Virus genome (UHGV): UHGV-0138524
Strand: one strand, 5' to 3'
Source: a virus
Length of the DNA stretch: 20,478 nucleotides
Below are positions 3,551 through 20,478 of this stretch, piece after piece (position 1 is the first letter of the stretch; every line of letters begins with the position of its first letter). Under the pieces are notes generated by a model. The model was not told where the DNA came from. It did no database searches and saw nothing but the letters and a program-made list of their open reading frames with translations. The position numbers and the translations under genes are program-made.

Positions 3551-3568
3551 AGTCTGGTTTTGTCGCGA

Positions 3569-3670
3569 TTAATGGCCGCGCAATGCGCCAATAACACTGT
3601 TGAGGCACATGCTGGCAACAATCATCAGAAAAATCGTCGTCCACGGATTTTCATAAACGATAGATAACAT
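3569..3670 (-). CDS. Candidate 33-aa hydrophobic (single transmembrane-like) peptide
   Basis: Hand translation MLSIVYENPWTTIFLMIVASMCLNSVIGALRGH; AAGAGGAA Shine-Dalgarno-like sequence upstream of the ATG; ends just before the terminator; absent from the ORF track, which lists nothing under 60 aa. Confidence 0.3.
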   Translation of the reverse strand: MLSIVYENPWTTIFLMIVASMCLNSVIGALRGH

Positions 3671-3686
3671 ATTTATATAGTTCCTC

Positions 3687-3992
3687 TTATTTGCGCATTC
3701 TGATGTGATTTAACAGGTGTTTGATAACGACTGATAGCTCATCTTTACCGGCCTGCTCGACCATTTTTGCGGTGTAGCTTTCCACCTCGCGAGAGCTCAG
3801 GTCGTTATTTAAAGCCATTAAAGTCAGATTCTTTGCCCAATCGGCAAACGGGTCATTTTTCGATGAAAGGGGATTTTGCATGTACAAAAACCTCGAATTA
3901 TTTAACCAGCAGACGGTTGAAGTATTTGCGACGCTATGACCGGCTAACGCCTCGCGTAGCTCGTTGTTCAACCCCGCCAGCACTGAAAGCAA
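3687..3992 (-). CDS. Hypothetical 101-aa protein in the SOS operon (TTG start as called)
   Basis: ORF downstream of the DinI-like gene in the same orientation; no family recognised. Confidence 0.4.
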   Translation of the reverse strand: MLSVLAGLNNELREALAGHSVANTSTVCWLNNSRFLYMQNPLSSKNDPFADWAKNLTLMALNNDLSSREVESYTAKMVEQAGKDELSVVIKHLLNHIRMRK

Positions 3993-4014
3993 GTTTCAGC
4001 ACCGGCGGCGTTTG

Positions 4015-4248
4015 TTAATGCAGCCAGCTATCGTCCTCCCATACCTGCTGCATGATTTCCATTACTCGTTTTTTATCTTCGTCCAGTTTCAAACCGCTTA
4101 GTTCAACGCCATTAGCGGAGCCCTTGCGAATTCGGATAGCAGTCTTTGGGTAAATAGGTTGAAGATTGCGGTACAGTTCAGCCTCAAGTGCATCCAATGT
4201 TGCCTGACTAATTTTTTGCTCTTTATCCAACGTGATATTGATTCTCAT
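4015..4248 (-). CDS. DinI-family protein (DNA-damage-inducible protein I-like; Tum-like module)
   Basis: 77-aa MRINITLDKEQKISQATLDALEAELYRNLQ...KKRVMEIMQQVWEDDSWLH resembles E. coli DinI and the DinI-like part of 186 Tum. Confidence 0.65.
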   Translation of the reverse strand: MRINITLDKEQKISQATLDALEAELYRNLQPIYPKTAIRIRKGSANGVELSGLKLDEDKKRVMEIMQQVWEDDSWLH

Positions 4249-4251
4249 AAT

Positions 4252-4434
4252 CTAATCAGCCTTATAAAAATTATCATCTTCGGTTTCGTTATTTTCGCTG
4301 TTTGCTAGGTCTGCAATGAGAGTGAGCGCGAGCTTTAAGTCTGATGGCTTGCAGTTTGCAATCAGAGATACCTCGGCAATAAATTGCACACAAGCCCACT
4401 TTTGCTGCGTTCGGCTGAAATGTTCGCCAACCAT
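4252..4434 (-). CDS. Hypothetical 60-aa protein, first gene of the SOS operon
   Basis: ATG at 4434 preceded by GGGAGGG; a LexA box lies about 20 nt upstream; stop is 3 nt before the DinI-like ATG. Confidence 0.4.
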   Translation of the reverse strand: MVGEHFSRTQQKWACVQFIAEVSLIANCKPSDLKLALTLIADLANSENNETEDDNFYKAD

Positions 4435-4453
4435 GAAATCCCTCCCACAGGGT

Positions 4454-4473
4454 TACTGTATATTTATACAGTA
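4454..4473. promoter_or_regulatory. LexA (SOS) box overlapping the promoter of the minus-strand operon
   Basis: TACTGTATATTTATACAGTA, a near-perfect match to the palindromic CTGT-N8-ACAG consensus. Confidence 0.75.
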
Positions 4474-4547
4474 GCACGTATTGGCAAAAGATGGGAAGAA
4501 AAAAAACGAATAGAGCGATTGCTGTATGTGCATGATATGGATATGAA

Positions 4548-6770
4548 TTACCCATGTATTGGTTTTGATGCTTCAGCCATCGCCGCAACACGATTAAGGA
4601 TTTTCCGAGCTTTAGCCTCATGCGATGGTGCTGCGGAAAATATTTCTCCTTTGGCCGTTCCGCGTAGCCATTTACCATCAAAACAACTTTTACCACCGGC
4701 CATCAGGTGCAGGGCTTCGCCCCGGCTGATATTAATGCCGGTTGTCAGATGTATCTCATCGATAGTTTTAGCTATAGCTGCGTTTTGCTCATCCGTTCCG
4801 TGGATGAATTTTCGCCGTGCTGCTGGCTTTTGCTTCCTGAGTCGGTTGGTCAATTCTCGTCTTTCACGCCGACTCAGTGGTTTTGTTAAATCCAGTATCG
4901 GTGGATCGCTTTCGCTTCCCGTACAGTTATTGACAGAACTCCGAGGGACGGCTTTGCCGTCCTGAAGGTCAACGGCCAAATCAACAGCACGCTTCGGAAC
5001 AATCTTCCACTGAGTGAGCCGGGTTAAAATCGGGCTTCCTGCACCTATGGAGGAATCGTAGACCCCCTTAATACATACCGTTTCCTCACCGTACTGATTA
5101 AGCTCGGTGCGCGGTTCATACAGTGTGCGCACCTGTAAATCATCGCGACGGACAAACGGCCCACCCTGAGCATTAACATAACCAGCCCAGTCACCAGCGT
5201 CGGCGGCATCATGGACGGCGGCAAACTCAACGCTCAGACCGTGCGCGGTTTCGGTATCAGCGAGGCGACGCAACTCACGGTAAACCGTCACCGGCGCACC
5301 ACCAATAAACTGAAACTGACGGATGTGCCAGCGCGCAGCCCATGCTGAAACGGCGGGGGCTGTCTCTTTCAGCAGCTCACCGCTTTCATCATCGGTTTCA
5401 CCATCGAGAGCATAACCGTCGATATTTTTTGAAATGTATTTAGCAACATAGCCGGTTGCGCTGCCTTTCTCCGGGTCAATGGACTCGGCGTGGAAACGTG
5501 CTTTTTTGGATTTATCGCTTTTCAGTTCGTGGCGGTCTTCTTTCCATGCGTATTTACGGACGATGGAGCGAACATATTCAACATCTTCCGGCAGCATGAA
5601 CATCAGCATGTGCCAGTGTGGAGTGCCGTCGTGATGGGGCTCGGCGACACGAATACCGAAAATACGGACATCTTCCCGATGTAGTTTGGCACGGATACGC
5701 GCCCAGATACCGGTTAGATAGTTTTGCGTGTCAGCCGGGCTGGCACCGCTCCATTTGCTGTTACGGTAACCGGCTTTAGTCGTGGCGTGATATTTTGACG
5801 GCGCGGTTAGAGTGTAAAACTCACCGACATAACCGAGCTCATTACAGATGTTTTCAAACCCACGAATGCGGGTCATGAGCTCACAGCGGCGAATCGCAGG
5901 GTTAGCAACTGAGCCATCATATTTTTCAATTAGGCTGATACGGTTGCCGTCTTCGTCTTCGAGATCCAGACCTTTGAGAAATTCACGAGTGCGGCGCTTT
6001 TGTTCACGCCAGTCAGTCACGCAGTTTTTACTCGCGTAAGTGTTTTTTTTCTTACTGACGTTGCCGACTGCAATTTGCAGGTGTTCGCGCCACGTAGCTG
6101 CAACACGGCGCAAACGACCGCGCCACCACCCATCGTTAAACATTTTGGCGATAGCCGGTGCGATTTCATCCGCACCGACATATTTTTTTTCAACCCGCTC
6201 CCAATGTGGTGGGATAACGTTGAATTGGAGGGAAATAAAGCCAGCACGAATATACCAGGTGTACAGCGTTTTAAGCTCGCCGAATCCGTGGTCATTAATG
6301 TTGGCAAGTTCACCACGAATGAAATTAGCAATATCAGCGGCCAACAGGTCAACATCAGCGCGCGACATGTCCGGGAGACGGTTATATTGGGCGACCATAT
6401 TAACCATGCGTGACGACAGATATTGCATTTGCTGAGTATCAAAATGACTTCCAAAAACAGCGGTTGATACCTTGCTGTTGATACCAGCGCATTCGTATTT
6501 TTTTGCGACCAGTTCAAGACGCGGCAATGCCTTTTTGCAGAAGCTGATTAAAAATGCATTGGCTCGTTGACTACCCTGATTTTGCTCCAGCACCGCAGCA
6601 GTGCGATAAACATCTAACCGCACGCAGTCGGGCTGGAGAGAAAGCACCTTTTTTGCATGCAGCAAAGCCGCGAACATACGGTCGCGGCGATGCTGTTGCT
6701 CATAAGTAAGGTATGGGCTGGAGATTGCCGACCGTGGGACGTTCCACGGATAAGCGAATTGAACAGCCAA
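4548..6770 (-). CDS. A: Replication initiation endonuclease (P2 gpA-like rolling-circle initiator)
   Basis: 740-aa ORF with HDGTPHWHMLMF (His-hydrophobic-His) and GYVAKYISKN (paired tyrosine) motifs typical of the family. Confidence 0.85.
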   Translation of the reverse strand: MAVQFAYPWNVPRSAISSPYLTYEQQHRRDRMFAALLHAKKVLSLQPDCVRLDVYRTAAVLEQNQGSQRANAFLISFCKKALPRLELVAKKYECAGINSKVSTAVFGSHFDTQQMQYLSSRMVNMVAQYNRLPDMSRADVDLLAADIANFIRGELANINDHGFGELKTLYTWYIRAGFISLQFNVIPPHWERVEKKYVGADEIAPAIAKMFNDGWWRGRLRRVAATWREHLQIAVGNVSKKKNTYASKNCVTDWREQKRRTREFLKGLDLEDEDGNRISLIEKYDGSVANPAIRRCELMTRIRGFENICNELGYVGEFYTLTAPSKYHATTKAGYRNSKWSGASPADTQNYLTGIWARIRAKLHREDVRIFGIRVAEPHHDGTPHWHMLMFMLPEDVEYVRSIVRKYAWKEDRHELKSDKSKKARFHAESIDPEKGSATGYVAKYISKNIDGYALDGETDDESGELLKETAPAVSAWAARWHIRQFQFIGGAPVTVYRELRRLADTETAHGLSVEFAAVHDAADAGDWAGYVNAQGGPFVRRDDLQVRTLYEPRTELNQYGEETVCIKGVYDSSIGAGSPILTRLTQWKIVPKRAVDLAVDLQDGKAVPRSSVNNCTGSESDPPILDLTKPLSRRERRELTNRLRKQKPAARRKFIHGTDEQNAAIAKTIDEIHLTTGINISRGEALHLMAGGKSCFDGKWLRGTAKGEIFSAAPSHEAKARKILNRVAAMAEASKPIHG

Positions 6771-6771
6771 T

Positions 6772-6993
6772 TTATACCCCCCGATAGTGTTTGTTTTTTA
6801 GCTCTGCTATTTGCTGGCAGGTTATGCAAAAAGCCACGCCCGGAATCGCAATGCGGCGAGCTTCCGGGATTGGTGTGTCACATTCCTCGCAAAGAAAACG
6901 GGAAGGTGCAGCGATACGGGTGCGTGCGTTGCTGATGTGGCGTTCGCGGTCTTCCTGCTCGCGCAGTTGTGCTAAATCCATTGCGTCGGCCAT
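6772..6993 (-). CDS. TraR/DksA-family C4 zinc-finger protein
   Basis: 73 aa with CEECDTPIPEARRIAIPGVAFCITCQ; start overlaps the upstream stop (TAATG). Confidence 0.65.
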   Translation of the reverse strand: MADAMDLAQLREQEDRERHISNARTRIAAPSRFLCEECDTPIPEARRIAIPGVAFCITCQQIAELKNKHYRGV

Positions 6994-7220
6994 TAGTGCA
7001 GCTCCTGTGATTCATTCTCAAAGCGGGTTGCTTCACGGCGCAGCAGTTCGGCAGCTTCGGTGCCGCTCATACCCTCTCTGGTAATATGAATAGCCAGCGC
7101 CTCAAGGCGGATGGAAACAGCGAGCGCGCGGTCTTTACGCTCTTCTTTTTTTGCATCGGTCAGCAATACGGCCAGCGCATCGCTATCAGTGTTAAAACTA
7201 CGGATTTCGGTATTACGCAT
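6993..7220 (-). CDS. Hypothetical early-operon protein (75 aa)
   Basis: ORF translationally coupled to the downstream zinc-finger gene. Confidence 0.45.
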   Translation of the reverse strand: MRNTEIRSFNTDSDALAVLLTDAKKEERKDRALAVSIRLEALAIHITREGMSGTEAAELLRREATRFENESQELH

Positions 7221-7287
7221 AATTAACTCTCCTGCTTTCGGGCAATAAGATGCCCGGCGGGTTTACGCCATTAAATTTCTGTTTGGA

Positions 7288-7626
7288 TTAATTCGGCATG
7301 GTTAGCCGTTTGGGAAATAAGCTCACTACTGCACGAAAATGATTCATCGCTGTAATAAGCGCCTTTTTCTCGTCAGTAGTCAGCTCACTTAATTCGAGTT
7401 CATGACGAGCCGCCGGTATTTTTGCCAGAAAGAAAATAGCGGCCAGCGCCCGATTATTTTCTTCAAATTGTGGGTCACGTTTATCGCGCATATCATCGAC
7501 AAAACGTTCAACCTCTTTCCAGCTATCGCCCCAATATCTCGCGCGCAATTCGGCAACATGATTGAGACCGGCCAGACGTTCACCCGCTTTTAGCGGAACA
7601 GTCGCGGAAACAGCTTCGATAGCCAT
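7288..7626 (-). CDS. Hypothetical early-operon protein (112 aa)
   Basis: ORF in the early operon orientation; no family recognised. Confidence 0.45.
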   Translation of the reverse strand: MAIEAVSATVPLKAGERLAGLNHVAELRARYWGDSWKEVERFVDDMRDKRDPQFEENNRALAAIFFLAKIPAARHELELSELTTDEKKALITAMNHFRAVVSLFPKRLTMPN

Positions 7627-7790
7627 GATTCCCCCCGCTTTTGAGTAGAGAGGCCAGCCAGTAAATCAGCCTGCGAGTGGCTCGGGTGCCAGCGCTTGCC
7701 GTCCTTACCTGCGATCCAGCCGTGGCCGTAGTGCATGCCGGGGCTTTGCTTAACGAGCAGCGATGCGAATGACGGTTCACTTTTCAGCAT
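7590..7790 (-). CDS. Hypothetical small protein (about 66 aa)
   Basis: ATG at 7790 just downstream of the B stop; overlaps the next gene, so uncertain. Confidence 0.25.
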   Translation of the reverse strand: MLKSEPSFASLLVKQSPGMHYGHGWIAGKDGKRWHPSHSQADLLAGLSTQKRGESWLSKLFPRLFR

Positions 7791-7797
7791 ACGCACC

Positions 7798-8337
7798 TCA
7801 AATCAGACCAAACGATGCGCCAATACCGCTCATGGTATCGACCACGCTCGACATAGCTGGATTAGTCTGCAGACGTGCATGCAGCGCCAGAGCCGACAAT
7901 GACAACATGCGAATGCCGGAGTTAACGCTTTCAATCATGTTGTGCTTACGGGCAGTGGTCAGACGTTCATCAGATACCGCGCCGCTCGCCAGTTCGCCGA
8001 GTTCACGCATCGCGCGCATGACATAAGACTGCAATTTGTCTTTAGCCAACTCATTAACCGGCACGCATGGTAGGCAGTGAATCTGCGCTAAAAAACCATC
8101 AATGAGGGTTGAGTCTTCGGTCAGGTCAGTCAGCAGCCACAATTCAGGCGGCGTGAACTGGTGAGGCTGTTCCGGGTTGAGCTTGTTACGTAACGTTTGA
8201 ACGTTCATACCTGCACGCTCGGCCAGCTTCGCCATGTTGTGACGCTGTGCGAAAATGCGGCATGCTTCGTCATAGTGGGGATGTTTGGAAACCTGAAAAT
8301 CAAACATGGTTAAATTCCCTCTAACTTGCATAATCAA
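7798..8337 (-). CDS. B: Replication protein B (P2 gpB-like)
   Basis: 179 aa MIMQVRGNLTMFDFQVSKHPHYDEACRIFAQRHNMAKLAERAGMNVQTLRNKLNPEQPHQF... resembles P2 B. Confidence 0.75.
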   Translation of the reverse strand: MIMQVRGNLTMFDFQVSKHPHYDEACRIFAQRHNMAKLAERAGMNVQTLRNKLNPEQPHQFTPPELWLLTDLTEDSTLIDGFLAQIHCLPCVPVNELAKDKLQSYVMRAMRELGELASGAVSDERLTTARKHNMIESVNSGIRMLSLSALALHARLQTNPAMSSVVDTMSGIGASFGLI

Positions 8338-8339
8338 AT

Positions 8340-8711
8340 TCAGTTAAGAGCGGTGCGCTGGTCGATGTAGCGACAATCAATCGCTTGTTGAGTCAGCTTA
8401 TCGCGCCATGCTTTTACATTTACGAGGGTTCGGCTTCGTTTAGCAGCTTCCTCTTTGTTGGAAAAGTCTTTGGTCGGAGCTTTGAGAAGGACTCCCTCAT
8501 CGAGCCATTGCCAGACCAGACGCTCGCTAACACCGCGAGTAGCGGCGAAGTCTTTCACAGTCATCGTGTCTGACATAGCGGAGCGAATCATTGTCTGTAG
8601 AGCTGGCAGCATGGCGGTAACGATGGCATCAAACTGTGTTGGGTCTAGCAGCACAGTTTGATTTTGTGAGTTTTGCGAGTCGTGCGTCGAGATTGATTTT
8701 GCATCTGACAT
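8340..8711 (-). CDS. Cox/Apl-like helix-turn-helix regulator or excisionase, first gene of the early lytic operon
   Basis: 123 aa with an HTH-like stretch MTVKDFAATRGVSERLVWQWLDEGVL; faces the repressor gene; the true start may be an internal Met. Confidence 0.45.
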   Translation of the reverse strand: MSDAKSISTHDSQNSQNQTVLLDPTQFDAIVTAMLPALQTMIRSAMSDTMTVKDFAATRGVSERLVWQWLDEGVLLKAPTKDFSNKEEAAKRSRTLVNVKAWRDKLTQQAIDCRYIDQRTALN

Positions 8712-8823
8712 ATCGCATTATCTCCTGTTGTTTGAAATGTAGTGCAGTGGTGTGCATCTTGGTCGGTGAGCACCAATATAGATCGCTAAATTTTGGTTGT
8801 AAACAAAATTCTTGTTGGTGTCA

Positions 8824-9670
8824 TATGTCTAAAAATGATGTTAATGCGTCTGCCGCATTGGAACGTGTCCTTTCTGCATACGGCTTTAAGCAGCAAAAGG
8901 AACTAGCCGAAAGGCTTGGCATACATGCAAACAACGTGAGTAGCTGGCTTGCTAGAAACGTAATCCCTAGCAACGTTTTCGTTGAGTGTGCTCTTGATAC
9001 TGGAGCTGACCTGCGATGGCTAATTAATGGTGAGCTTGCAAATGCAAGATTTGAAGTGGTGAAAACTAAGCTTAAAGGTAAGCAACTCTATGATGAAATC
9101 ATGGCAAATGGAGGGAGGGCGGTTCTGCGTCGGATTCTCGATGCGTATGGTTTTACTCTGCAAAAAGAGCTTGGAGATTTATTAGGTATATCTTCCGGCA
9201 CTATAAGCACTTGGGTTAGACGCGATTTTTTCCCCGGTGACGTGGTTGTCACTTGCGCCCTTGATACTGGCGTATCGTTAGAATGGTTATCAACCGGAAA
9301 AGGCCAGATGCGTAACAGTAATGATGGTGAACCGGCAAATGCTTTAACGATTAGAAAGTGCCGCCTCGAGGCTGGCGAACTCAAAGATATCGGACGCTGG
9401 ACTCCTGATATATCTATGGTTCCATCAAATACTGATGATTTAGTGTTTATTGATGGTGTGAGCACATCTTGGCTTGTTGATAGTTCTAACTCGAAGATAG
9501 GAAATGGTCGCTGGCTTATTGGTATTGATGGCGCACTCGATGTTTTTGACGTAATCAGGTTGCCAGGCGGAAAGGTCAGGTTATCAAATAAGTCTGCTGA
9601 GTTTGAATGTAATATTTCAGATATCACACCATCAGGTGCGGTTATTTTTACTTTGGAAAAGCATGTTTAA
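8824..9670 (+). CDS. CI-type immunity repressor (186 CI-like) with a tandemly duplicated N-terminal DNA-binding domain
   Basis: From the internal ATG at 8824 (MSKNDV...); repeat 1 LERVLSAYGFKQQKELAERLGIHANNVSSWLARNVIPSNVFVECALDTGADLRWLINGE and repeat 2 LRRILDAYGFTLQKELGDLLGISSGTISTWVRRDFFPGDVVVTCALDTGVSLEWLSTGK; the track ORF starts at 8636, inside the upstream gene. Confidence 0.65.
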
Positions 9671-9679
9671 GGAGCAGTA

Positions 9680-10018
9680 ATGAAAAAGTTTATATTTGCG
9701 ATAGTCTGCATTGCACTTTCTTCCTCAGCCATAGCCGCTGAGAAGTTTAAAGAGATAGACGGCGCTGCATATGGTGACAAGTGGCCTCTAACCTTTGAAA
9801 AGGCAAAGGTATCATGTGTTAACCGTGCTTATGCTTTTGTGTATGACATCAAAACTGATGATAGATATCCTCTGAATGGCATGGCGGTAGATGCTGTTAA
9901 ATCAGGAAAGCTGGAGGGGTCTAACTTAGATGACGTATGGAAGGATGACCCTGAGTATGACGGCGTTAAAATTTCAATTTCACCGGTGATTGATGCCGCT
10001 ACAGCCCTTTGTAATTAA
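9680..10018 (+). CDS. Secreted or periplasmic small protein (DUF2511/YebY-like, assigned from memory); moron between the repressor and int
   Basis: N-terminal signal peptide MKKFIFAIVCIALSSSAIAAE; GGAG 7 nt upstream of the ATG. Confidence 0.55.
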   Translation: MKKFIFAIVCIALSSSAIAAEKFKEIDGAAYGDKWPLTFEKAKVSCVNRAYAFVYDIKTDDRYPLNGMAVDAVKSGKLEGSNLDDVWKDDPEYDGVKISISPVIDAATALCN

Positions 10019-10042
10019 TTTTCTTTTAGCCTCGGTATCGCA

Positions 10043-11092
10043 ATGACTGTAAGTAAACAAAAAAGTGGAAAATGGTTGTGTGAACTCTATCCAAATGGTC
10101 GAGAAGGGCGGCGTATACGTCGGCAGTTCAATACCAAAGGTGAGGCCGAGGCATTTGAAGCATTTACCAAAAGCGAGAGTGAAGATAAGCCGTGGCTCGG
10201 CAAGAAAGAAGACCGCCGACGCTTAAGCGAGATTATTCAGCTTTGGCACAATTTGCACGGTCAAGCGTTAGTCGCCAGTAAGTCGAGATTTGCAAAGCTT
10301 CAAATCGTATGTAATGGACTTGGCGACCCGATTGCATCTCGCCTTACCGCGAAAGACTGGGCTCATTATCGTGACCGTCGATTACGTGGTGAAATAGACA
10401 ATGGTTATCATAAAGACCCCTCGAAATGGATCGCCAAACCTATAACCGTCAATCGCGAACAACAATACCTAGAAGCAGTGTTTAATGAGCTCCGCCGGTT
10501 AGGGGAGTGGAGCCTACCCAATCCACTTGATGGGATCCGAGTATTCAAAGAAGCTGAGAAAGAAATGTCCTGGCTAACTTTGTCTCAGCTCCCGGAGCTG
10601 TTTCGAGCCTGCGAGCAATACGGCAAAGAAGACCTCACCATGATTGTTAAGGTGTGCCTTGCAACCGGCGCTCGATGGGGGGAAGCGGAGAGATTGACCC
10701 GACCTCAACTTTCTCCATATAAACTAACGTTCACCAAAACCAAAGGTAAGAAGAATCGCACAGTTCCTATTCCTAAATGGCTGTACGACGAGTTGTCCGT
10801 ACGTCAAGGCAGAATGTTTAAACCCTGCTATCAGGAGTTTAAAAAGATGCTCAAACTAACGAATATTGAATTGACGGAAGGGCAGAAGACGCACGTTTTG
10901 CGTCATACTTTTGGTGCGCATTTTATGATGAACGGAGGGAATATACTGGTGCTGCAGAAAATTCTCGGACATGCCAATATTCGAGAAACAATGAAGTATG
11001 CGCACTTTGCTCCTGACCACCTTGAACAAGCTGTAACCCTCAATCCGTTATCGCTGTATGTTGGCGACAATGTGGCGGCAGAGGTTGCATAA
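10043..11092 (+). CDS. int: Tyrosine integrase (P2/186 family)
   Basis: 349 aa; N-terminus ...GKWLCELYPNGREGRRIRRQFNTKGEAEAFE; catalytic-region signature VLRHTFGAHFMMNGGNILVLQKILGHANIRETMKYAH. Confidence 0.85.
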   Translation: MTVSKQKSGKWLCELYPNGREGRRIRRQFNTKGEAEAFEAFTKSESEDKPWLGKKEDRRRLSEIIQLWHNLHGQALVASKSRFAKLQIVCNGLGDPIASRLTAKDWAHYRDRRLRGEIDNGYHKDPSKWIAKPITVNREQQYLEAVFNELRRLGEWSLPNPLDGIRVFKEAEKEMSWLTLSQLPELFRACEQYGKEDLTMIVKVCLATGARWGEAERLTRPQLSPYKLTFTKTKGKKNRTVPIPKWLYDELSVRQGRMFKPCYQEFKKMLKLTNIELTEGQKTHVLRHTFGAHFMMNGGNILVLQKILGHANIRETMKYAHFAPDHLEQAVTLNPLSLYVGDNVAAEVA

Positions 11093-11227
11093 CACTGCAA
11101 TTCACTGCATTAAAAATTACTTTAACTAGTTGTTTTATATGGTAAGTGTTTGTTCGCTGTGGGGTGTTAATAGGAGCGTCTTAACTGATAACGTATTCGC
11201 GCTACATCCAAAGCGTGTTATGAAACA

Positions 11228-11257
11228 AGGGGTTAGCGAATTGCTAACCCCTTTTTT
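11228..11257 (+). terminator. Rho-independent terminator downstream of int
   Basis: Stem AGGGGTTAGC / GCTAACCCCT with loop GAATT, followed by T6. Confidence 0.6.
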
Positions 11258-11310
11258 ATTGGTGGTGGCGGCAAATTGGCGGCAGAGGTTGGAGCGATGG
11301 CGACAGATAT

Positions 11311-11331
11311 AAAAAAACCTGCCGAAGCAGG
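11311..11331 (-). terminator. Rho-independent terminator downstream of ogr
   Basis: On the minus strand: CCTGC-TTCG-GCAGG followed by T7, just after the ogr stop. Confidence 0.55.
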
Positions 11332-11332
11332 T

Positions 11333-11551
11333 TCAAAGCCAAAGTTGCTGTTGTTGGTTTCTGATGGGGTGTGGCGGAGCAGGATCAACAGTACCCGGTT
11401 TCACAATGAATCTTGATAGCGTCTCAAAAGTGATAAATGTACATCCGCAATTTATGTTCTGGCACTGGTGATAACGTTCTTTTGTTTCGGTGCTAAGGTA
11501 CCGGCTAGTGCGAGCATGTGCGGCGTTTTGGCATAACGGGCAGTGCATCAT
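11333..11551 (-). CDS. ogr: Ogr/Delta-family zinc-finger late-gene activator
   Basis: 72 aa MMHCPLCQNAAHARTSRYLSTETKERYHQCQNINCGCTFITFETLSRFIVKPG... closely resembles P2 Ogr; GGGGA upstream of this Met; the track ORF starts 15 codons further upstream. Confidence 0.85.
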   Translation of the reverse strand: MMHCPLCQNAAHARTSRYLSTETKERYHQCQNINCGCTFITFETLSRFIVKPGTVDPAPPHPIRNQQQQLWL

Positions 11552-11626
11552 AATTATTTCCCCTGCTGGCGTATCTGAGGGAATAATAAACTTCAAAATT
11601 GCATTTGCAAGTTTTGGTTTGCTTTT

Positions 11627-12796
11627 TCACTCCTCATTTTCTTCTGAGCTGTACTCCACATCGGAGAGTTTAACCTCAAGCTCTAAGCCCGTCGTGAAAC
11701 CGTTATTATTGAGGTTGTGGGTCACCTTGCTGATTAACCATGCCTGCTCGTCTATGACGCGCTTAAAGCCTGACACGCGTACAGGCGTCTCAGGAAATAA
11801 ATCCGCTCGCCCTAGCGCCAGTGTGATTGAAAACTCCGCAACACCTCGCTGCAGTTTATCCCACTTAGCCTGAGCGGCGCGCATCGCCTGTGCCTTTGAG
11901 GCATAGACTGTCGTCAGCGCCAGCACGTTATCGGCTTCACCGGCCATGTACTCACCCTCACGTGCTTCCTGTTCTTTTTTGACCTTTGTCTTTTTGCTGA
12001 CCGGCTTTGCTTTTGGGTGTTCCAGTGCGCGCAGGTGCTTCTCTTTTGGCTTGCGTTTCAGCGTTACTTTCTGCTTTTGTGGCTTCGGGTCTTTGGTGTG
12101 CAACCATTTAGCAGTGACGCCGGTATAAGCCCCACGGTCGGCAATGGCAAACTGATGACGGTCACCATCACTGCGGGTCAGCGTCATTTGCGGGACGGGT
12201 TTGCCGCTGGCCGTCATCGCACTACCGGCTTTCAGAAACAACAGTTTCCCTGCCTTCACCGATACCGTTGCCCCGTTGCGGTCAGCCAGTCGACTCAAAA
12301 ATACCGCGTCGGATTCCTGCGACTGGTCGATATGCGGTACCGGGATTTTTTTCAGCGATTCCGCAATGCTGGCCGTCAGTTTGTTGCGCTTTGCGATGGT
12401 ACTGACCAGTTCGCCGATGGTGGTGTCGTGCCATGACTCTTCACGCCTGGAATTTAGCGTGCCGCGAAAGTCCGCGCTGCGCGCCCGGATGGTCAGGGTA
12501 TCAGGAGCCCCCCGGTGCTCAATCTCATCGACCGTAAAATCCCCCTTATTCAGCAGCGCCGAACCCTGCCAGCCAAGCCACAACGTCAGCACTGCCCCGC
12601 GCAGGGGTAACTCGACTTTCCCATCGGTGTCATCGAGCTCAATGTCGAGCTGGTCAGCTTCAAAGCCCCTATTGTCCGTCATGGTGAGAGAAATCAGCCG
12701 GTCGCTGAAGTTGCTGGTAATGTCCTGACTGTTCAGCGTCAGCATAAAAGCCGGTGCAAGGCTGGCACCGGCGTCAATTGCCATCCCCGTTATCAT
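11627..12796 (-). CDS. D: Tail protein D (P2 gpD-like late control/tail protein)
   Basis: 389-aa ORF in conserved P2 order (ogr-D-U-T); sequence resembles gpD. Confidence 0.8.
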   Translation of the reverse strand: MITGMAIDAGASLAPAFMLTLNSQDITSNFSDRLISLTMTDNRGFEADQLDIELDDTDGKVELPLRGAVLTLWLGWQGSALLNKGDFTVDEIEHRGAPDTLTIRARSADFRGTLNSRREESWHDTTIGELVSTIAKRNKLTASIAESLKKIPVPHIDQSQESDAVFLSRLADRNGATVSVKAGKLLFLKAGSAMTASGKPVPQMTLTRSDGDRHQFAIADRGAYTGVTAKWLHTKDPKPQKQKVTLKRKPKEKHLRALEHPKAKPVSKKTKVKKEQEAREGEYMAGEADNVLALTTVYASKAQAMRAAQAKWDKLQRGVAEFSITLALGRADLFPETPVRVSGFKRVIDEQAWLISKVTHNLNNNGFTTGLELEVKLSDVEYSSEENEE

Positions 12797-13278
12797 GCAG
12801 TGAAACCTCCGGGCATACCCTGCAGTTTATCTGTCAAATTACCGGCAGAGCCGAGAAGCTCACTGGCCTGTTTATTCAGGTCACCAAACATCTCTGTCAG
12901 CGATTCATCAACCCGTTTTAGCGAAAGCGTGAAATCAATCTTTCTGGCCGCACCATCACTGAAAAACTCGGTGCGTGTAGTCGATACTTTATCGACGATA
13001 TACATCCCGAGGATATTTCCGGTTCCCTCTATCAACGGCCACGCTCTGCCTTCATTGGCCATCACCTCTACAGCCTTAAGTGAGATCCAACCGCCAGTGA
13101 TAGCGGGGTATAGCGTACCAGCAAGCTGTATAGAGGTTTCCCCCTCGCCAAGAAACTGATAGGCAGGTGGTTTACCCACCCGGTCATTGGACACCCAGCG
13201 ATAATCTTTCGAATGCTGCATCGACTGGTAAGGCAGGGTGCGAAGTTCAAACACAAACATTCCGAGAGCAAGCATCAT
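12793..13278 (-). CDS. U: Tail protein U (P2 gpU-like)
   Basis: 161-aa ORF overlapping the D start; order and sequence resemble gpU. Confidence 0.8.
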   Translation of the reverse strand: MMLALGMFVFELRTLPYQSMQHSKDYRWVSNDRVGKPPAYQFLGEGETSIQLAGTLYPAITGGWISLKAVEVMANEGRAWPLIEGTGNILGMYIVDKVSTTRTEFFSDGAARKIDFTLSLKRVDESLTEMFGDLNKQASELLGSAGNLTDKLQGMPGGFTA

Positions 13279-13291
13279 CGTTTAATCCCCC

Positions 13292-15734
13292 TCAATAGTC
13301 GTGGGTCATGTTGGCACGCTGGCGGGCGCGTTTATCGCGCTCAATCTGTTCGAGCGTGTCGCGTAGTTGTCTGTCAAGCTGATGCCCCGGCGCAACACCT
13401 CCCGGCAGATTGATGTTGTATTCGCTTTTGCTCTGGTCAATGTAAGAGCGCCCCGCCGGTGCGGTAACTGGCTGATAAGCCTGATAGCCGCCATATGTGC
13501 TGGTTGCCGGGATGTAGGAATTACCCTGTGTGGCGGCATTGGTTTTGGCGGCGGTCTGGTCGAGGCTGTCCGACTCTTTGTTGATGATGCCGAGCTTTTC
13601 GAGAAGCCAGTCGACACCGCTGCGCAGCTTGTTAAAAACATTGAGCGGAGCCATCAAGGCAGAGGCCAGTGCCTGACCAAATATGACGCCGACACTTTTG
13701 CAGCTATCAAGCGTTTCCTGCGTGGCCTTAACCGGTGCTATCAGGTCTTTAAACCACTGCCAGACGCCGCGCAGTTTCTCGCCGAGACCATCAAAAATGG
13801 GAGCCAGTGGAGCGAACATTTCCCCGACTGGGGCAAAGGCACTCATGATGCCCTCAATCACTCCCGAGAAAAATGCGCTGATGGGCTCCCAATATTTACG
13901 GATGAGTAGCGCCCCCGCCACAATCGCCGCACCGACGGCCACTATCGGCCAGGTAATCGCACCGAGCGCTGTCGCAATGGCACTACCGACGACAGTAAAG
14001 ACCGTACCCAGCACGCCAGCAGCGGCGATAATGGCATTAATCCCCATGACAACCGGCCACGCAACGAGACCAATGCCGCCGATGATACCAATCAGCGCCA
14101 GCGCACCACCGGCGATGATGCCGATAGTTTCCGCTAACTCCTTGTTGTCTTTGATCCAGTCATCAAGCTTTAGCACATACCGTGTTGCTGTCTGAGTTAG
14201 CTGACGCAATGAGCTATCTTGCTGGTCGTAGAGGTCGGTACCGACGGCCTCATAAGCGGATTGAAACTCTTTGAAGTCGCCACCTAAGTTATCCTGCATA
14301 ATTTTAACAAGCTCTGCGGTTTTTCCGTCTGAGGCTTTCAGGGTGGAGGTTAGCTGGTCAAGTTTGCCGGTTGAGGCGGCAGTCATGAGCACCGCCGCCG
14401 CCGAACTGGCTTCCTCACCGAATATCGTTTTCATGTATTCGGCTTGTTGACCGGTGCCGAGATTGTTACGCTCAAAACTGGCCTGCATTTCCTTGAGGAT
14501 GGTAAAAATCGGGCGCGTGTTGCCTTTACTGTCGGAAGTTTTGACCCCCAGCTCCTTAAGCGCATCCCACGCTTTACCGGTCGGAGCCTGCAGGCGGCTT
14601 AAAACCGCACGGCTCCCGGTGCCGGCCATCGAGCCGGTGATTTTGGCGTCATGCAGGGCGCCCACCATTGCGGCAGTTTCTTCAATGCTGACACCGGCAT
14701 TTTTCGCCACCGGCGCGGCGTATGTCAGCGCATCGCTCAGCCCGTCGAAATCGGCAGCAGTTTTATTCATCACCGTCGACAGAACGTCGCCAATGTGCGC
14801 CACCTTGTCATTGGAAAGCTGAAACGCAGAGCGCATCCCCATCAGTAATGCGGCGTTTTCTTCCATCGTGCGACGGTTGGCAAGCGCCATATTGAGGGTG
14901 ACCGGTGTCGTCGCCTGAATGGCTGCCGCATCGCCGCCCCCTTTGGCGATAATAATCTGCGCACTGGCTGCATCATCAGCAGAAGCGGCTGTATTGTCAC
15001 CGAGCTGGCGTGCCTGTTTGCGTAGCGCCTCCATTTCTGGCGACTGCTTATCGACCCCGAGCACGGCCTGCAGCTCGGAATTTTTCTGCGCAAAGTCATA
15101 ACCGGGCATCAGTAATTTCACCCCGGCCATCGTTCCCGCTGTCGCGATACCTACCCCGGCAGCCCCTGCAGCGGCCATGTTACCGGCAAGCTCCTTGCCT
15201 GATTTATATCGCTCTTTCACCCGGCCTAATTTCGCCTGCTGCGCACTGACGCGCGAGTGCCTCACGCTGGCGGTTAAGCTGCGCCGTCGTTTCGCTGATG
15301 GAGGTTTTGAGCCGACGCTCATCGGCAGAAAGGGTGCGGGTATTAATACCGGCCTGCATCAGTTCGGAGCGCTGGCGCTGTACAGACGTTCTCAGACTGT
15401 TGTACTTCGTCTGTAGCTCAGAGGCAGCACGCTTTGCCGCTTCGAGTGCCTGCGCCTGCGCGCGGGTCGGACTGGTGGAGTTTTTAAACTGCACGGCCAG
15501 TTCACCGGCTTCGCGTTTCGCTTTCTCAAGCGCCTGACTGGTCACGGCCAGTTGCGCACTGGCCTTACGAAAGCCGTCGATTTTTGACGCCTGACCATTC
15601 AGGTCACGCAGCCCTTTTTGTGTTTCGCGAATATCGCCCGACAGGGTTTTACTCGCGGTCTGGATGGATTTAAGCGGTCGGGTCGCCTGGTCGACCGCTT
15701 TCAGCAAAACCTCAAGTCTCAGGTTATTACTCAT
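13292..15734 (-). CDS. T: Tail tape measure protein (P2 gpT-like), frame interrupted near 15250-15256 (two overlapping ORFs, 15734->15204 and 15322->13292); possible pseudogene
   Basis: N-terminal ORF ends ...NRQREALARQCAAGEIRPGERAI*; the second frame continues ...RVSAQQAKLGRVKERYKSGKELAGN...; hydrophobic Gly/Ala-rich segments typical of tape measure proteins. Confidence 0.75.
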
Positions 15735-16214
15735 TGTGGTGTCCGCTACGCTGCAGCGCCTTTTCGCGCCATGTGATGAGCTCGGTCAGGCTCAGGGAAT
15801 AGAGCTCTGATAGCGGCCAGTGGAATATCACCGCGATATCCGCCATCAGGTCATCGGTCGACAGGTCGGGCGGGAAATCTACTCCGCCGAAGCCGGTGAC
15901 AAAAAACCAATCACCTTAGCGGCCAGCGACAGCATATCGGGCAGGTTCATTGCGGTAAGCTCCTGCGCCGTAAGCGCGGGGTAGGTCATGCGTGGCAATA
16001 CCTTAATCAGCGCATCGACTTCGGACTGCGCCACCGCTGCCAGACTGACACCGCGCAGGGTACCGGCGTTCGGCTCAATCAGTGTGACTTTATCAATCGT
16101 CTGACCGGCGCGCTTAATCGGCTTGTCGAGGGTCACGACGTTCGGGTTTACGGTGTCAATTTCATTGCCAGCCATATCAACAAATTCAGCGGTTTTACGT
16201 GGTGCTTTTGCCAT
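15727..16214 (-). CDS. E': E+E' fusion produced by programmed -1 ribosomal frameshift
   Basis: Slippery TTTTTTG on the minus strand (plus 15900-15906); the -1 frame continues FFVTGFGGVDFPPDLSTDDLMADIAVIFHWPLSELYSLSLTELITWREKALQRSGHHNE* and its stop overlaps the T start (ATGAGTAA). Confidence 0.65.
15879..16214 (-). CDS. E: Tail assembly chaperone E (P2 gpE-like)
   Basis: 111-aa ORF ending ...DMLSLAAKVIGFLSPASAE; position between FII and T. Confidence 0.75.
   Translation of the reverse strand: MAKAPRKTAEFVDMAGNEIDTVNPNVVTLDKPIKRAGQTIDKVTLIEPNAGTLRGVSLAAVAQSEVDALIKVLPRMTYPALTAQELTAMNLPDMLSLAAKVIGFLSPASAE
15900..15906 (-). promoter_or_regulatory. Slippery heptamer for the E/E' programmed -1 frameshift
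   Basis: T6G run on the coding strand near the 3' end of E, as in P2 and lambda G/GT. Confidence 0.6.
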
Positions 16215-16277
16215 GATGTTTTTCTCTGCTCTGAATGGGGATTAATAACCGGCCAGCAGTGCTGACCGGTCAGGGAA

Positions 16278-16796
16278 TTACAGCCCGATTGCGCGGCGGT
16301 GCTGTTCCAGACGGTCGACGCCGTTCACCTTCTCAACCATGTTGACGGTATCGATTTCGATGACGTCGCTACCATCAATCGTGAGGCGGTAATAGGTGCA
16401 TACGGTCGACAGTTTGGTCGAGGTGTTTTCACCCTGCTTATTCTCGCCGCCGTCGATTTCTTTATGACGGCCACGCATGACCACCTCGACCGCCACGATT
16501 TCGCCAGTGTCGTCACGTTGGTAAGAGCCAGCAAAACGCAACGGCACAGCGTCAGCACCCGGCGCGGCGTACTGCGCCCACAGCGCCACATCAGGCAGGC
16601 CACCGACAGACCATTCGACGGTGAGCGCATCATCGTCGAGACCAAGGTCAATCGCCGCCGCGCCATTCATGCCGCCGCCGCGATAGTTTTCGAGCTTGCG
16701 GGTCAGCTTCGGCAGCGTCACGGATTCAACAACGCCCATGTAGCTAAGGCCGTCATTGAACATGTTCAGATATTTAAGTTTGCGGGGTAGTGCCAT
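16278..16796 (-). CDS. FII: Tail tube protein (P2 gpFII-like)
   Basis: 172-aa ORF directly downstream of the sheath gene; sequence resembles FII. Confidence 0.8.
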   Translation of the reverse strand: MALPRKLKYLNMFNDGLSYMGVVESVTLPKLTRKLENYRGGGMNGAAAIDLGLDDDALTVEWSVGGLPDVALWAQYAAPGADAVPLRFAGSYQRDDTGEIVAVEVVMRGRHKEIDGGENKQGENTSTKLSTVCTYYRLTIDGSDVIEIDTVNMVEKVNGVDRLEQHRRAIGL

Positions 16797-16811
16797 GTTG
16801 TTTCAGGCTCC

Positions 16812-17990
16812 TTAGCTGTTGACCGATTCGGCCAGATTTACCAGATATTTATCGGTGATACGCTGGCGCAGGGTCAGGCTTTCCAGTGGTGGAACCGGTG
16901 TATAGTCGTAGTCGATATACAGTTTCCCGGCCTTGAGGGTTTCCTTATCGTTCGATTCCTCGTCAAACCAGCATTCACCGTCCACGATGTAGCCGTTTGA
17001 TTTCAGCTCGCGGAATTTGGCGTTAATGCCGTCGACAATGTCACGGATAAGTGATGCGGTGATGGGCTTATCGACCGCCCACATGTGCGCCTCGGCCATC
17101 GTGTCGGCCAGCACCTGCGCGGTGCGGGTGTAGTTCTCAAACAGGAAAAGCGGGTCATCAGAGCAGGTGCGGTTACCCCAAAAGCGGAAGCCATCCTTAC
17201 GCACCAGTGTTGTGAGCCCGGCCTCGTTGAGCAGATCAGCATCGGTGCCGGATGCCTGCAAATCCCAAAACACTGACGCACTGATGCCGGTAACACCCTG
17301 CACGCCGATGTTAGACAGGGTTTTGTGCCAGCCGACGGTCTGGTCGATATAGGCACGCAGGCCGAGTGCGCGCGCAGTTGCGTATGCCGGTGCGGTGGCG
17401 TTTGTGGTGGTATCCCATGCAAGGAAATCAGGCCAGATGACCATCAGCTCGCGCTGGCTGAAATTCTCGCGATAGGCCATCGCCTCGGAAATGGTTTTAC
17501 AACCCCATGCGCTGATATAGCCAAAGGCGCGCAGGCTGATACAGACCGAAGCAAGTGCGACTGCGACCTCTTTGGTATCGAGACCCGGCACGCCGAGAAT
17601 GCGCGGCTTAACGCCGGTGACTGCTTCGGCAGTCAACAGCGCCTTGATGCCGGTATATTTACCGCTCTCATCCGTGCCGCCGATGATATTGGAAATGGTC
17701 TGCGCTTCGGCGTCTTCTCCGGTACCTTCGGCAACACGCACGACAACTGTGACAGGTTTTGACTGGTCGGCGATGGCCTGCAGGGAGGCAGACAACGTGC
17801 CTTTTTTACCGGCTTTTGCAATGGCGCTCTGCACATTGGTAATCAATACCGGTTCGTTGAGGGGGAATGTCTCGGCATCCGCATCGCTGGCCGTGCAGAC
17901 CATGCCGACAATTGCGGTTGCAACAGTGGAAATGACGCGGGTGCCGTCGTTAATCTCAAGCACCTGCACGCCGTGGTGAAAATCACTCAT
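16812..17990 (-). CDS. FI: Tail sheath protein (P2 gpFI-like)
   Basis: MSDFHHGVQVLEINDGTRVISTVATAIVGMVCTASDADAETFPLNEPVLITNVQ... closely resembles P2 FI; start taken at the Met at 17990 (GGAG upstream) rather than the track start at 18017. Confidence 0.85.
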   Translation of the reverse strand: MSDFHHGVQVLEINDGTRVISTVATAIVGMVCTASDADAETFPLNEPVLITNVQSAIAKAGKKGTLSASLQAIADQSKPVTVVVRVAEGTGEDAEAQTISNIIGGTDESGKYTGIKALLTAEAVTGVKPRILGVPGLDTKEVAVALASVCISLRAFGYISAWGCKTISEAMAYRENFSQRELMVIWPDFLAWDTTTNATAPAYATARALGLRAYIDQTVGWHKTLSNIGVQGVTGISASVFWDLQASGTDADLLNEAGLTTLVRKDGFRFWGNRTCSDDPLFLFENYTRTAQVLADTMAEAHMWAVDKPITASLIRDIVDGINAKFRELKSNGYIVDGECWFDEESNDKETLKAGKLYIDYDYTPVPPLESLTLRQRITDKYLVNLAESVNS

Positions 17991-18088
17991 CCGGTTAACT
18001 CCGTGGTTAGTGGGCAAGTGTTATTGTCCTGGCTGGTCTGTTGAGGGGCTATTTGTCAGTGTTGGGTGATGTCTGACACATTGAGACA

Positions 18089-18331
18089 TCAGCAACGGAT
18101 GCGGGAAATTTTTTGTATAGCGTTGAGATACCCGAGGCGATCCAGTTTCCAGACCACAAGCGTATCGCCCTCTGACAAGGTTCTGAGTAACCTCTTTAGC
18201 CCCGGCCAGTCTGATGTTTTGCCGCTGATTTTATCTTCGAAAATCAGCTCGCATCCTGCGCACTCCAGTTCATTTCGCTGTAATGCGGTGTTCTGGTCAT
18301 TTGTTGATACACGTACATAACCGATAAACAT
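18089..18331 (-). pseudogene. Serine DNA invertase (Gin/Hin/Pin family), 3'-truncated remnant
   Basis: MFIGYVRVSTNDQNTALQRNELECAGCELIFEDKISGKTSDWPGLKRLLRTLSEGDTLVVWKLDRLG then unrelated residues and a stop; homologous to the first ~70 codons of the intact invertase at 20066. Confidence 0.75.
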
Positions 18332-18385
18332 GAGAAATAACCCGGTAAAAAGTCGGGATCATGCCAGCTGAACGGAATATCTGCA

Positions 18386-18411
18386 TTTTCTAAAAGGTTG
18401 GTTTAGGAGAT
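18386..18411. other. Crossover site M (degenerate outer half-site) bordering the invertible segment
   Basis: TTTTCTAAAAGGTTGGTTTAGGAGAT; the inner half GGTTTAGGAGA matches sites L and R, the outer half reads AAAGG instead of AAACC. Confidence 0.55.
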
Positions 18412-18765
18412 GCGGCAAAAAAAAATGTTGGCACTGGTTCCGGACAGATTCCGGACATGTCTTCATTTGGTAATCAGCGAGCCGATTCGGGGTATCAATA
18501 CCTGCCAGGCGGGTTAATTCTTCAATGGGCAATAGCCATAACGAGAACATCCCCAGAAACAGTATCATTCCCGATTGCGTTTCCAACCAGGGCGCTATGT
18601 GTTGTTGCAACAGACCAGAGTGTTGGGGGTACAGGTCAAGGTTTTGCGTTAACCGCCCAGGATTTTACGAGAACTAATTTCCAGCTACGCGCTTATCAGA
18701 CAGGAACCAACGCTGAATCATCCATCGGCGCTGGCGGGTTTAACTATTTTGCTGTGGGGTATTAA
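18394..18765 (+). CDS. Tail fibre C-terminal variable cassette (start-less Sv segment, silent in this orientation)
   Basis: Frame open from 18394: KVGLGDAAKKNVGTGSGQIPDMSSFGNQ...FNYFAVGY, paralleling the [19 protein letters not shown] junction of H; followed directly by a Tfa gene. Confidence 0.6.
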   Translation, partial: KVGLGDAAKKNVGTGSGQIPDMSSFGNQRADSGYQYLPGGLILQWAIAITRTSPETVSFPIAFPTRALCVVATDQSVGGTGQGFALTAQDFTRTNFQLRAYQTGTNAESSIGAGGFNYFAVGY

Positions 18766-18768
18766 TAA

Positions 18769-19200
18769 ATGGCTTATTTTTATTCAGCATTAAATAACGC
18801 TTTCTACCCTGATGAGCTCAGAGATGTTTATGAAGCGAGTAGAAACTGGCCTGACGATCTCATAGCCGTCTCAGATGAGACATTCACTGAATATTCGGGG
18901 ATGCCACCAGAGGGTAAAACTCGTGGAGCTACTGAGGATGGAATGCCGGCATGGGTAGACATTCCACCTTTAAGCCATGAGGAGGAAATCGCAGCAGCTG
19001 AAGCTGAAAAACAGTATCGTATCGATCAGGCTAATGAGTATATAAACAGCAAGCAGTGGCCGGGTAAAGCTGCGCTGGGGCGACTTACAGACGACGAGAA
19101 GGCCCAGTATAACGAGTGGCTGGATTATCTCGATGCGCTGGAATCTGTGGACATATCCAGCGCACCAGATATCAACTGGCCTGAGTCGCCGGAGGAGTAG
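18769..19200 (+). CDS. Tail fibre assembly protein (Tfa; Mu U / P2 G family)
   Basis: 143 aa ending ...[28 protein letters not shown], the characteristic Tfa C-terminus. Confidence 0.75.
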
Positions 19201-19603
19201 GCCAGTCCGGGTCTGCTGTATCAACTCGCATCAGCAGCACCCGGTATTTTTTCCATTCGGCTAATGAAACAGTTTCTTCTTCCGTCGCGATCCCCGCATC
19301 AACGGCGTCCTGCCGCCATTCTATTTCAGAGTCAGCTGAAGCACGCAGTCGCGATTTTTCGGCTTCTGCCAACGCAATAATTTCCTCTTCAGTTGGTTCG
19401 GGAATATCTATCCATTCAGGTAAACCATCAGAATTAGGAGCGCGTAATTTTCCGTTAGGTGATTCTCCGGCAAACTCAACGAATACGGAATAGTCTACTT
19501 CAACGGCATCGTCAGGCCAGCTACCTGCATTTTCATAAATACTTTTTAGCTCATCAGCGTAGAACGCATTTTCTTTTGCAGAATAAAACATATTAATCAC
19601 CAT
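19172..19603 (-). CDS. Tail fibre assembly protein, second (convergent) copy
   Basis: 143 aa ending ...[28 protein letters not shown]; 3' ends of the two Tfa genes overlap by 29 bp. Confidence 0.75.
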
Positions 19604-19946
19604 CCAATCGCGAAAACTCTAAAGCCACCGTAGCCAGCACATGTAATCTGAGTTCTTGTTACCGTCGTATAGTATGATCGGCCCACCGCTAAGCTATATG
19701 CGGCTGTAGAACTCAAATCAACTGCCCCAGTTGATACATCACTAAATAACGGAATCATGCACTCATTTGGGAATGCAATAGGGAAATTCGCAGTTACTGG
19801 TGTCACATAATCAGTTGTAGTAGCACCAAACCACTGCAATATGATCACCCGTTCTTTCCCGGCGACCATTGCCGGGATAGTCATATAGCCTGTAGAGCCG
19901 GTCACACACACCGCTGCGCCTAATTTTGCTCCCTCTCCCAAACCAA
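19597..19946 (-). CDS. Tail fibre C-terminal variable cassette (start-less S'v segment beginning at crossover site R)
   Basis: [30 protein letters not shown]...[10 protein letters not shown]; its first 17 residues are encoded by the 55-bp repeat also present at 1-55. Confidence 0.65.
19892..19946. repeat. 55-bp exact direct repeat, copy 2 (identical to 1-55)
   Basis: See copy 1. Confidence 0.9.
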
Positions 19947-19958
19947 CGTTTTCCGGAA
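19933..19958. other. DNA-invertase crossover site R (gix/hix-like)
   Basis: CTCTCCCAAACCAACGTTTTCCGGAA; core AAACC-AA-CGTTT; lies 107 bp upstream of the intact invertase. Confidence 0.65.
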
Positions 19959-20065
19959 GACATGGTTACTTCTGACGGTGCGGTACCAGACCTGCAGTAC
20001 AGCCAGAAATGACGATGCTCGATACAATGCGAGGGACTATGACATCTAAATAAAAGGGGATTTTT

Positions 20066-20478
20066 ATGCTGATCGGCTATGTAAGGGTGTCAACAAATGA
20101 CCAGAACACTGCGCTGCAAAGAAATGCGCTGGTAAGCGCAGGATGTGAACAAATATTTGAAGACAAAATAAGCGGCACTAAAGCGGAAAGGCCGGGGCTT
20201 AAGCGTTTATTACGGACCTTATCGGAGGGTGATACGCTGGTTGTCTGGAAGCTGGATAGGCTTGGCAGAAGTATGAAACACCTTATCACGCTTATAGAGG
20301 AGTTGCGGGAAAAAGGTGTTAATTTCCGTAGTCTGACAGACAGTATTGACACATCAACACCCATGGGGCGTTTCTTTTTTCACGTCATGGGGGCTTTAGC
20401 AGAAATGGAACGTGAATTAATTGTTGAGAGAACACTGGCCGGACTGGCAGCTGCACGCGAACAGGGACGCATTGGCGG
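20066..20478 (+). CDS. Serine DNA invertase (Gin/Hin/Pin/Cin family), 3' end outside the window
   Basis: MLIGYVRVSTNDQNTALQRNALVSAGCEQIFEDKISGTKAERPGLKRLLRTLSEGDTLVVWKLDRLGRSMKHLITLIEELREKGVNFRSLTDSIDT..., with the catalytic serine context YVRVST; AAAGGGGA upstream. Confidence 0.85.
   Translation, partial: MLIGYVRVSTNDQNTALQRNALVSAGCEQIFEDKISGTKAERPGLKRLLRTLSEGDTLVVWKLDRLGRSMKHLITLIEELREKGVNFRSLTDSIDTSTPMGRFFFHVMGALAEMERELIVERTLAGLAAAREQGRIG

Follow-up and report, generated by a model that had tools for sequence, protein, structure and literature searches.

The DNA analysed here, called the window below, is a stretch of 20,478 nucleotides that makes up an entire SPAdes contig (ERZ1755337 NODE_1) and contains a 186-like prophage in a circular or tandem form that deletion has reduced to 19,891 bp. 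On its minus strand lies the tape-measure gene of a phage tail, T, which is 2443 nt long, a length not divisible by 3, and is split into a 176-aa ORF (T-N) and a 676-aa ORF, the latter called by a gene finder as a 628-aa product (T-C). The features in and around T are as follows.

16812-17990, upstream of T: sheath gene of the tail operon
16278-16796, upstream of T: tube gene of the tail operon
15879-16214, minus strand: tail chaperone gene E (PF10109; identified from the 1008S13 and 186 annotation), intact
15727-15846, minus strand: tail chaperone gene E', directly upstream of T, intact
15734..15204, minus strand: T-N, 176 aa, with its ATG at 15734 and its TAA stop at 15206-15204; residues 1-162 are native
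The 14 residues after native residue 162, minus strand: out-of-frame tail of T-N, QCAAGEIRPGERAI
15250..15255, read on the plus strand: CGCGCG run bordering the deletion described below; relatives have GCGCGCG
15322..13292, minus strand: ORF of the +1 frame, 676 aa, the rest of T, reaching the normal T stop
15178..13292, minus strand: T-C as called by the gene finder, 628 aa; its ATG at 15178-15176 is native Met187
12793-13278, minus strand: tail gene U, downstream of T, intact
11627-12796, minus strand: tail gene D, downstream of T, intact

Judged by its sequence, the gene is the homologue of P2 T and 186 G in a phage-186-like (Eganvirus-type) E. coli prophage. Homology to the gpT/gpG family extends along the full length of T, with 87.7 % nucleotide identity to 186 G at 100 % coverage and up to 89.6 % identity to other Eganvirus-like phages, each of which has a single uninterrupted tape-measure gene. 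The PHROG profile phrog_28 (‘tail length tape measure protein’) is matched by residues 1-163 of T-N at profile positions 106-249 (E=2.9e-57) and by T-C at positions 260-769 (E=4.3e-173). T-C also contains PF10145 (PhageMin_Tail, E=5.5e-44), while the 176-aa T-N is without a Pfam match. Residues 2-166 of T-N match a further profile, phrog_10546 (186 positions, function unknown, E=3.8e-42), which appears to be made up of N-terminal tape-measure fragments of other phage and prophage genomes, i.e., mis-filed pseudogene pieces. The position of T conforms to the FI-FII-E-E'-T-U-D order of P2/186-type phages, and E and E' each differ from their 1008S13 counterparts by 0-1 amino acid. Phage 186 G and P2 T occupy the same place between E/E' and U (F in 186) and D and match the same family profiles. 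However, members of the T/G family encode a ruler of about 813-815 aa in a single ORF, and 186 G is one uninterrupted CDS of 2,439 nt, whereas the T of the window is interrupted after codon 162.

The initial annotation had reported the span 15204-15322, which is exactly the overlap of the two ORFs, and had placed a frame change at 15250-15256, in a CGCGCG run that indeed occupies 15250-15255 of the plus strand; alignment puts the split between 15255 and 15256. The start of T-N is homologous to the annotated T/G start in both the E. coli 1008S13 prophage and phage 186, and translation of the minus-strand ORF 15734..15204 ends in ...NRQREALARQCAAGEIRPGERAI*. The 676-aa ORF includes ...RVSAQQAKLGRVKERYKSG... 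(in a longer excerpt, ...RVSAQQAKLGRVKERYKSGKELAGNMAAAG...). Within it native residues 163-814 are encoded from 15254 downward and 15322-15255 forms a non-native overlap. The second ORF lies in the +1 frame of the first, so that two added bases would rejoin them. The ATG of T-C lies 25 nt past the T-N stop and is preceded by AAGGAG at 15196-15191, 12 nt upstream. The 628-aa T-C is called in all fetched contigs and its exact product is present in the public assembly collection.

In an alignment with five relatives and in a full-gene alignment, a 2-nt gap is the sole indel in T. On the minus strand it corresponds to T nucleotides 480-481, at codons 160/161. Intact relatives (26 of 26) read CTGGCGCGCGTC and the window reads CTCGCGCGTC, i.e., CT-GGC-GCGCGTC in all 26 vs CT-C-GCGCGTC in the window and its clones. 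The bases missing are thus the GG of CTG-GCG (CC on the plus strand), adjoining the CGCGCG run, and an allele restored at 15255/15256 would read CTGGCGCGCG. Restoring one GC unit, as had been proposed, would yield the same amino acids, since CTC and CTG both encode Leu, but the bases actually missing are the GG beside the run.

To define the intact state, a 301-nt query around the lesion was compared with complete E. coli genomes and found matches in 64. Each listed match is two bases longer than the query and falls under the annotation ‘phage tail tape measure protein’; the junction of the window is absent from all 64. The four E. coli records that were fetched (1008S13, MB06232, I4 and 97.3) contain a single uninterrupted T CDS of 813-814 aa. 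A pattern accepting either allele retrieved 20 IMG/VR contigs and one Citrobacter genome, and the 26 intact relatives are these 21 matches plus E. coli and phage loci. GGC stands at the site in all 20 contigs, in the Citrobacter genome and in phage 186, and PHB48 is intact too. The nearest relative, a prophage in E. coli 1008S13, is separated from the window by about 8 SNPs over about 18 kb and has an intact T of 814 aa. Over the whole gene the T of the window is 99.96 % identical to this near-twin, from which it departs only by the deletion and one substitution (A419 vs D). The comparison with T genes of close relatives, which the initial annotation had called for, therefore gives the same answer throughout: at this site T is intact, with the two bases present, in all of those compared. 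A scan of JGI metagenomes for the exact deleted junction returned no match. The defective P2-like prophage of E. coli B was weighed as a source and rejected, as the junction is absent from every complete RefSeq E. coli genome; the best match to the site query among these is 99.3 % identical, the difference being the 2-nt gap.

The deleted allele is itself found in many assemblies. The index of the public assembly collection lists the exact 176-aa T-N product in 30 blocks, and the identical 61-nt junction is present in all 11 fetched contigs that cover the site (L007-L016 and L047), from at least 11 samples. Six of these samples have contigs with NODE_ names (ERZ1754488, ERZ1754891, ERZ1754902, ERZ1755106, ERZ1755270 and ERZ1755283), one has k119_ names (ERZ27234110) and four are Logan assemblies (SRR1211531, SRR1214034, SRR1215507 and SRR1215958). 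These three styles of contig name (NODE_ of SPAdes, k119_ of MEGAHIT, and Logan) probably stand for three assemblers. The sample accessions were not found in the full-text literature. As assembled, the lesion-bearing contigs are 99.98-100 % identical to the window, and the recurrence of the junction therefore reflects one clone sequenced many times and not repeated mutation.

The lesion in T is not the only one in this element. The full 1008S13 prophage, which measures 30.5 kb and lies between yfiB and rplS, served as reference for a BLAST map of the window (reference coordinates are those of L006).

40-1555 of the window, 13077-14592 of the reference: part of H, I and the 3' part of J
1555: junction of a 9.9-kb deletion, where the 3' part of J is fused to the 3' part of the portal gene
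1555-4012 of the window, 24526-26983 of the reference: 3' part of the portal gene and onward
3944-11186 of the window, 27320-34562 of the reference: DinI, A, cII, cI and int
11174-18420 of the window, 4001-11249 of the reference: ogr/B, D, U, T, E, tube and sheath

The 9.9-kb deletion took the N-terminal part of J, W, V, S, R, lysC/B, lysozyme, holin and X, as well as L, M, N, O, P and the N-terminal part of Q (portal). An additional stretch of about 337 bp is gone near 3944-4012 relative to 1008S13. The other retained CDSs (23 of 23) are intact in comparison with 1008S13, with 0-1 amino acid changes and no stops. Contigs carrying both the 9.9-kb and the T deletion were sought via the 135-aa portal remnant, and every contig that covers both sites (L008, L047 and the window) has both lesions. 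This look-up also brought up unrelated contigs with many broken genes, which were set aside. With capsid, scaffold, terminase, part of the portal, lysis and baseplate genes deleted, the element cannot make virions. It has thus lost virion-essential genes that its complete relative retains, as is expected of a cryptic prophage, and the suspicion of the initial annotation that the element is defective is borne out by the absence of 9.9 kb that the near-identical 1008S13 prophage possesses. Large internal deletions together with point lesions in structural genes are likewise seen in other decaying P2/186-like prophages of E. coli, and the same prophage has suffered different deletions in the relatives MB06232 and TW10598. 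What sets the remnant in the window apart from these is that it retains intact int, cI, A replicase, cos and att, and is seen in an attP form (circular or tandem).

We consider it very likely that T carries a genuine, inherited and pseudogenising 2-bp deletion. A sequencing or assembly error, in which case the true DNA would have both bases and an intact T, might be suspected from the k-mer coverage of the SPAdes contig, which is only 5.37, and from the GC-rich nature of the lesion site. However, the identical junction recurs in 11 other contigs, drawn from at least 11 samples and named in three styles, and this excludes a random error. A systematic artefact is argued against by the intact relatives, as their same local sequence (GGCGCGCG) is correctly assembled in 26 of them. 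In addition, the missing bases lie outside any long homopolymer. An error is accordingly very improbable in our estimation, and of the two options that the initial annotation had offered, inactivating mutation or sequencing error, the former is upheld by the junction in 11 of 11 contigs and by the intact T of all relatives compared, while the latter is not borne out. As for the mutational event, the most parsimonious reading of the aligned sequences would be loss of GG from CTG-GCG, and not a clean slip of one GC unit. The event at the run's border may also have been more complex, since alternating CG runs are known -2 hot spots (PMC4787813). Classic examples of such CpG runs in enterobacteria are hisD3052 CGCGCGCG and NarI-type sites (PMC4787813), and they lend some plausibility to a slipped-strand loss of one GC/CG unit, possibly reversible in the manner of phase variation, with CTG>CTC as a separate event, all the more as relatives have GCGCGCG exactly at the site. 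The likeness to hisD3052 and to NarI GGCGCC is that two bases are deleted at or beside a GC run (GCGCGCG here), but those sites lose a CG/GC unit within the run, whereas the window has lost GG at its border. Loss of a unit from CTGGCGCGCGTC would give CTGGCGCGTC, not the observed CTCGCGCGTC, and an extra adjacent G>C change would be needed. CTC is found in 0 of 26 relatives, and the intact sequence with CTC for Leu, CTCGCGCGCGTC, was not found among them; given some 8 SNPs per 18 kb, chance would place an independent SNP on that very base with a probability of about 5e-4. Nor does the tract resemble a phase-variable contingency locus, as it consists of only 3 CG units and its length is invariant among the 26 relatives and the 11 clonal contigs. 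Slippage, reversible or not, is for these reasons highly unlikely.

The split could, on the other hand, be functional, either through a programmed +1/-2 frameshift or because T-N and T-C are selected as two proteins. What speaks for such a design is a second, independent lineage, found through the shared 628-aa cluster, in which one base pair is deleted 14 nt downstream and the C-terminal ORF is again the same one of 628 aa; the good Shine-Dalgarno sequence and ATG ahead of Met187; and the existence, in phrog_10546, of a family of T-N-like proteins. The second lineage comprises P0021, GAB5128689.1, E. coli ECPV134 (GCA_052859745.1) and L038-L043 (27 blocks). Its prophage occupies the same rplS site, has a full tail and baseplate gene set in the stretch seen, and carries a T of 169 + 628 aa (9444-11887 of L038). 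Here a single A has been lost at T nucleotide 495, in GCACAG, relative to the intact T of E. coli 97.3, to which the T of L038 is 99.3 % identical over the first 600 nt. The two lineages thus have different lesions, and each is clonal and has a near-identical relative with an intact T. Their proximity is mostly a matter of ascertainment, because only lesions at about codons 127-186 give the same 628-aa call, and within that range two lesions would lie as close as this by chance about one time in six. About 90 other relatives show no lesion in this stretch of T. When the N-terminal 201 aa, in restored form, served as query, more than 100 clusters of short N-terminal T fragments of 110-347 aa were returned, many of them on contigs of 0.1-6 Mb and with no peak in length near 170 aa. 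Broken T genes are evidently commonplace and their break points scattered. A mutational hot spot or selected truncation point was also considered and was rejected, the second lesion lying outside repeats, the proximity being largely ascertainment and the fragment ends being scattered. Programmed frameshifting would entail a conserved two-frame layout, which is not seen in the 64 E. coli genomes, the 20 IMG/VR contigs, the Citrobacter genome, phage 186 or PHB48; of the 64 E. coli genomes and the 21 other loci, none conserves the split as such. The initial annotation had allowed that relatives might share the two-ORF arrangement by design; they do not, and the other split lineage has a different lesion. 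The overlap is furthermore without a known +1 slippery motif: neither a CUU-UGA-C-type nor an X-XXY-YYZ motif was seen on reading the minus strand from 15322 to 15204 by eye, and the P-site codons AUU, GAA and AUA (before AGG, AGA and UAA, respectively) cannot re-pair at +1. A genuine -1 programmed frameshift, that of the tail chaperone (E/E+E' in P2, orf51/orf52 in 186, G/GT in lambda), does occur in the same operon directly upstream, at 15727-16214, where it is annotated in the 186 record and likewise involves two overlapping frames. However, it concerns a different gene and is conserved in all relatives, whereas the T split is absent there, requires +1/-2 and has no slippery site. Finally, no tail could form in any case, because baseplate V, W and most of J are absent from the element. 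Altogether a functional split has hardly any probability.

Broken genes of another kind were seen in a set of related prophage contigs (L050-L052, L055 and L056, from Logan SRR337685xx-SRR337693xx), where splits affect many genes (A, cII, cI, int and portal). These splits look like the product of indel-rich, error-prone assemblies rather than biology, and assemblies such as L050-L052 call for caution when ‘frameshifted’ phage genes are counted in bulk collections.

In the attP arrangement of the window, int adjoins ogr/D across the att core (11174-11186). The attP form is assembled in several samples, as their longest contig, and the integrated form in others, with attL and yfiB in L053 and probably L049, and attR and rplS in L011 and L012. 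The integrase, att, cI, a DinI/Tum-like gene and the A replicase are intact in the remnant, and the 19-mer of phage 186 cos, GGCGTGGCGGGGAAAGCAT, is kept exactly at 3342-3360 of the minus strand (0 matches in 100 shuffles). Since cos, att, int and replication functions are kept and an attP junction is present, the element is a candidate for helper-dependent mobilisation. By analogy, the 19.9-kb remnant might be a hitch-hiker, loosely like satellite P4, that is packaged by a co-resident helper of 186/P2 type, a proposition that strikes us as very improbable. If it were true, loss of T would, like that of the head genes, be tolerated or even favoured. In a weaker variant of this reading, the two nearby T lesions might point to selection for a shortened, 628-aa tape measure made from the internal SD-ATG.

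A few other features of the window concern its ends, its tail-fibre region and its cargo.

18089-18331, minus strand: remnant of a tail-fibre invertase gene, 80 aa (PF00239 Resolvase, N-terminal domain only)
2118-3122, plus strand: 334-aa ORF in the region where P2/186-type phages carry variable cargo, bounded by the portal stop and cos

A 61-nt direct repeat (55 nt identical, 1 mismatch) is found at 1-61 and 19892-19952 and contains a hix/gix-like crossover site (...AAACCAAGGTTTT...) at the junction between the constant and variable parts of the tail-fibre gene H. From 19953 to 20478 the sequence leaves the circle into a second invertase gene fragment, 76 % identical to and inverted with respect to the truncated invertase at 18132-18331. 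This extension probably arose when the assembly walked through a k=55 repeat. The invertase remnant is also annotated as an incomplete pseudogene in 1008S13, and the invertible tail-fibre segment (two opposed chaperone genes, 18769-19200 and 19172-19603) has probably become frozen. The 334-aa ORF matches only the PHROG profile phrog_11743 (unknown function, E=2.8e-157) and gave no Pfam match, and PADLOC returned nothing for the cargo ORFs near cos. Phage 186 is without sequence at this position, where the window has about 1.1 kb extra.

The consequences of a genuine deletion for the T products can be predicted from the reading frames. With GG lost from CTG-GCG, ribosomes would read native residues 1-162, add 14 wrong residues and stop at the TAA at 15206-15204. 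The full-length ruler of 814 aa would not be made, and at most a 176-aa N-terminal fragment would appear. Re-initiation at Met187 is plausible in view of the sequence preceding it, and a 628-aa fragment might be produced in this way; native residues 163-186 would then be in no likely product. The tape measure is believed to reach along the whole tail and to act as scaffold for polymerisation of the tube (PMC3185693), and for this reason a split ruler should not function or should, at best, yield aberrant tails. We infer that T has lost its function. As the lesion sits in an element that makes no virions anyway, T is presumably under no selection.

The T lesion is an ordinary case of recent, sporadic pseudogenisation and nothing new in kind. 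The locus nevertheless merits annotation as one tape-measure pseudogene, where gene callers give two proteins (176 + 628 aa). At about 8 SNPs from an intact relative and with two structural lesions, the element provides a datable example of prophage decay, albeit one of little wider importance.
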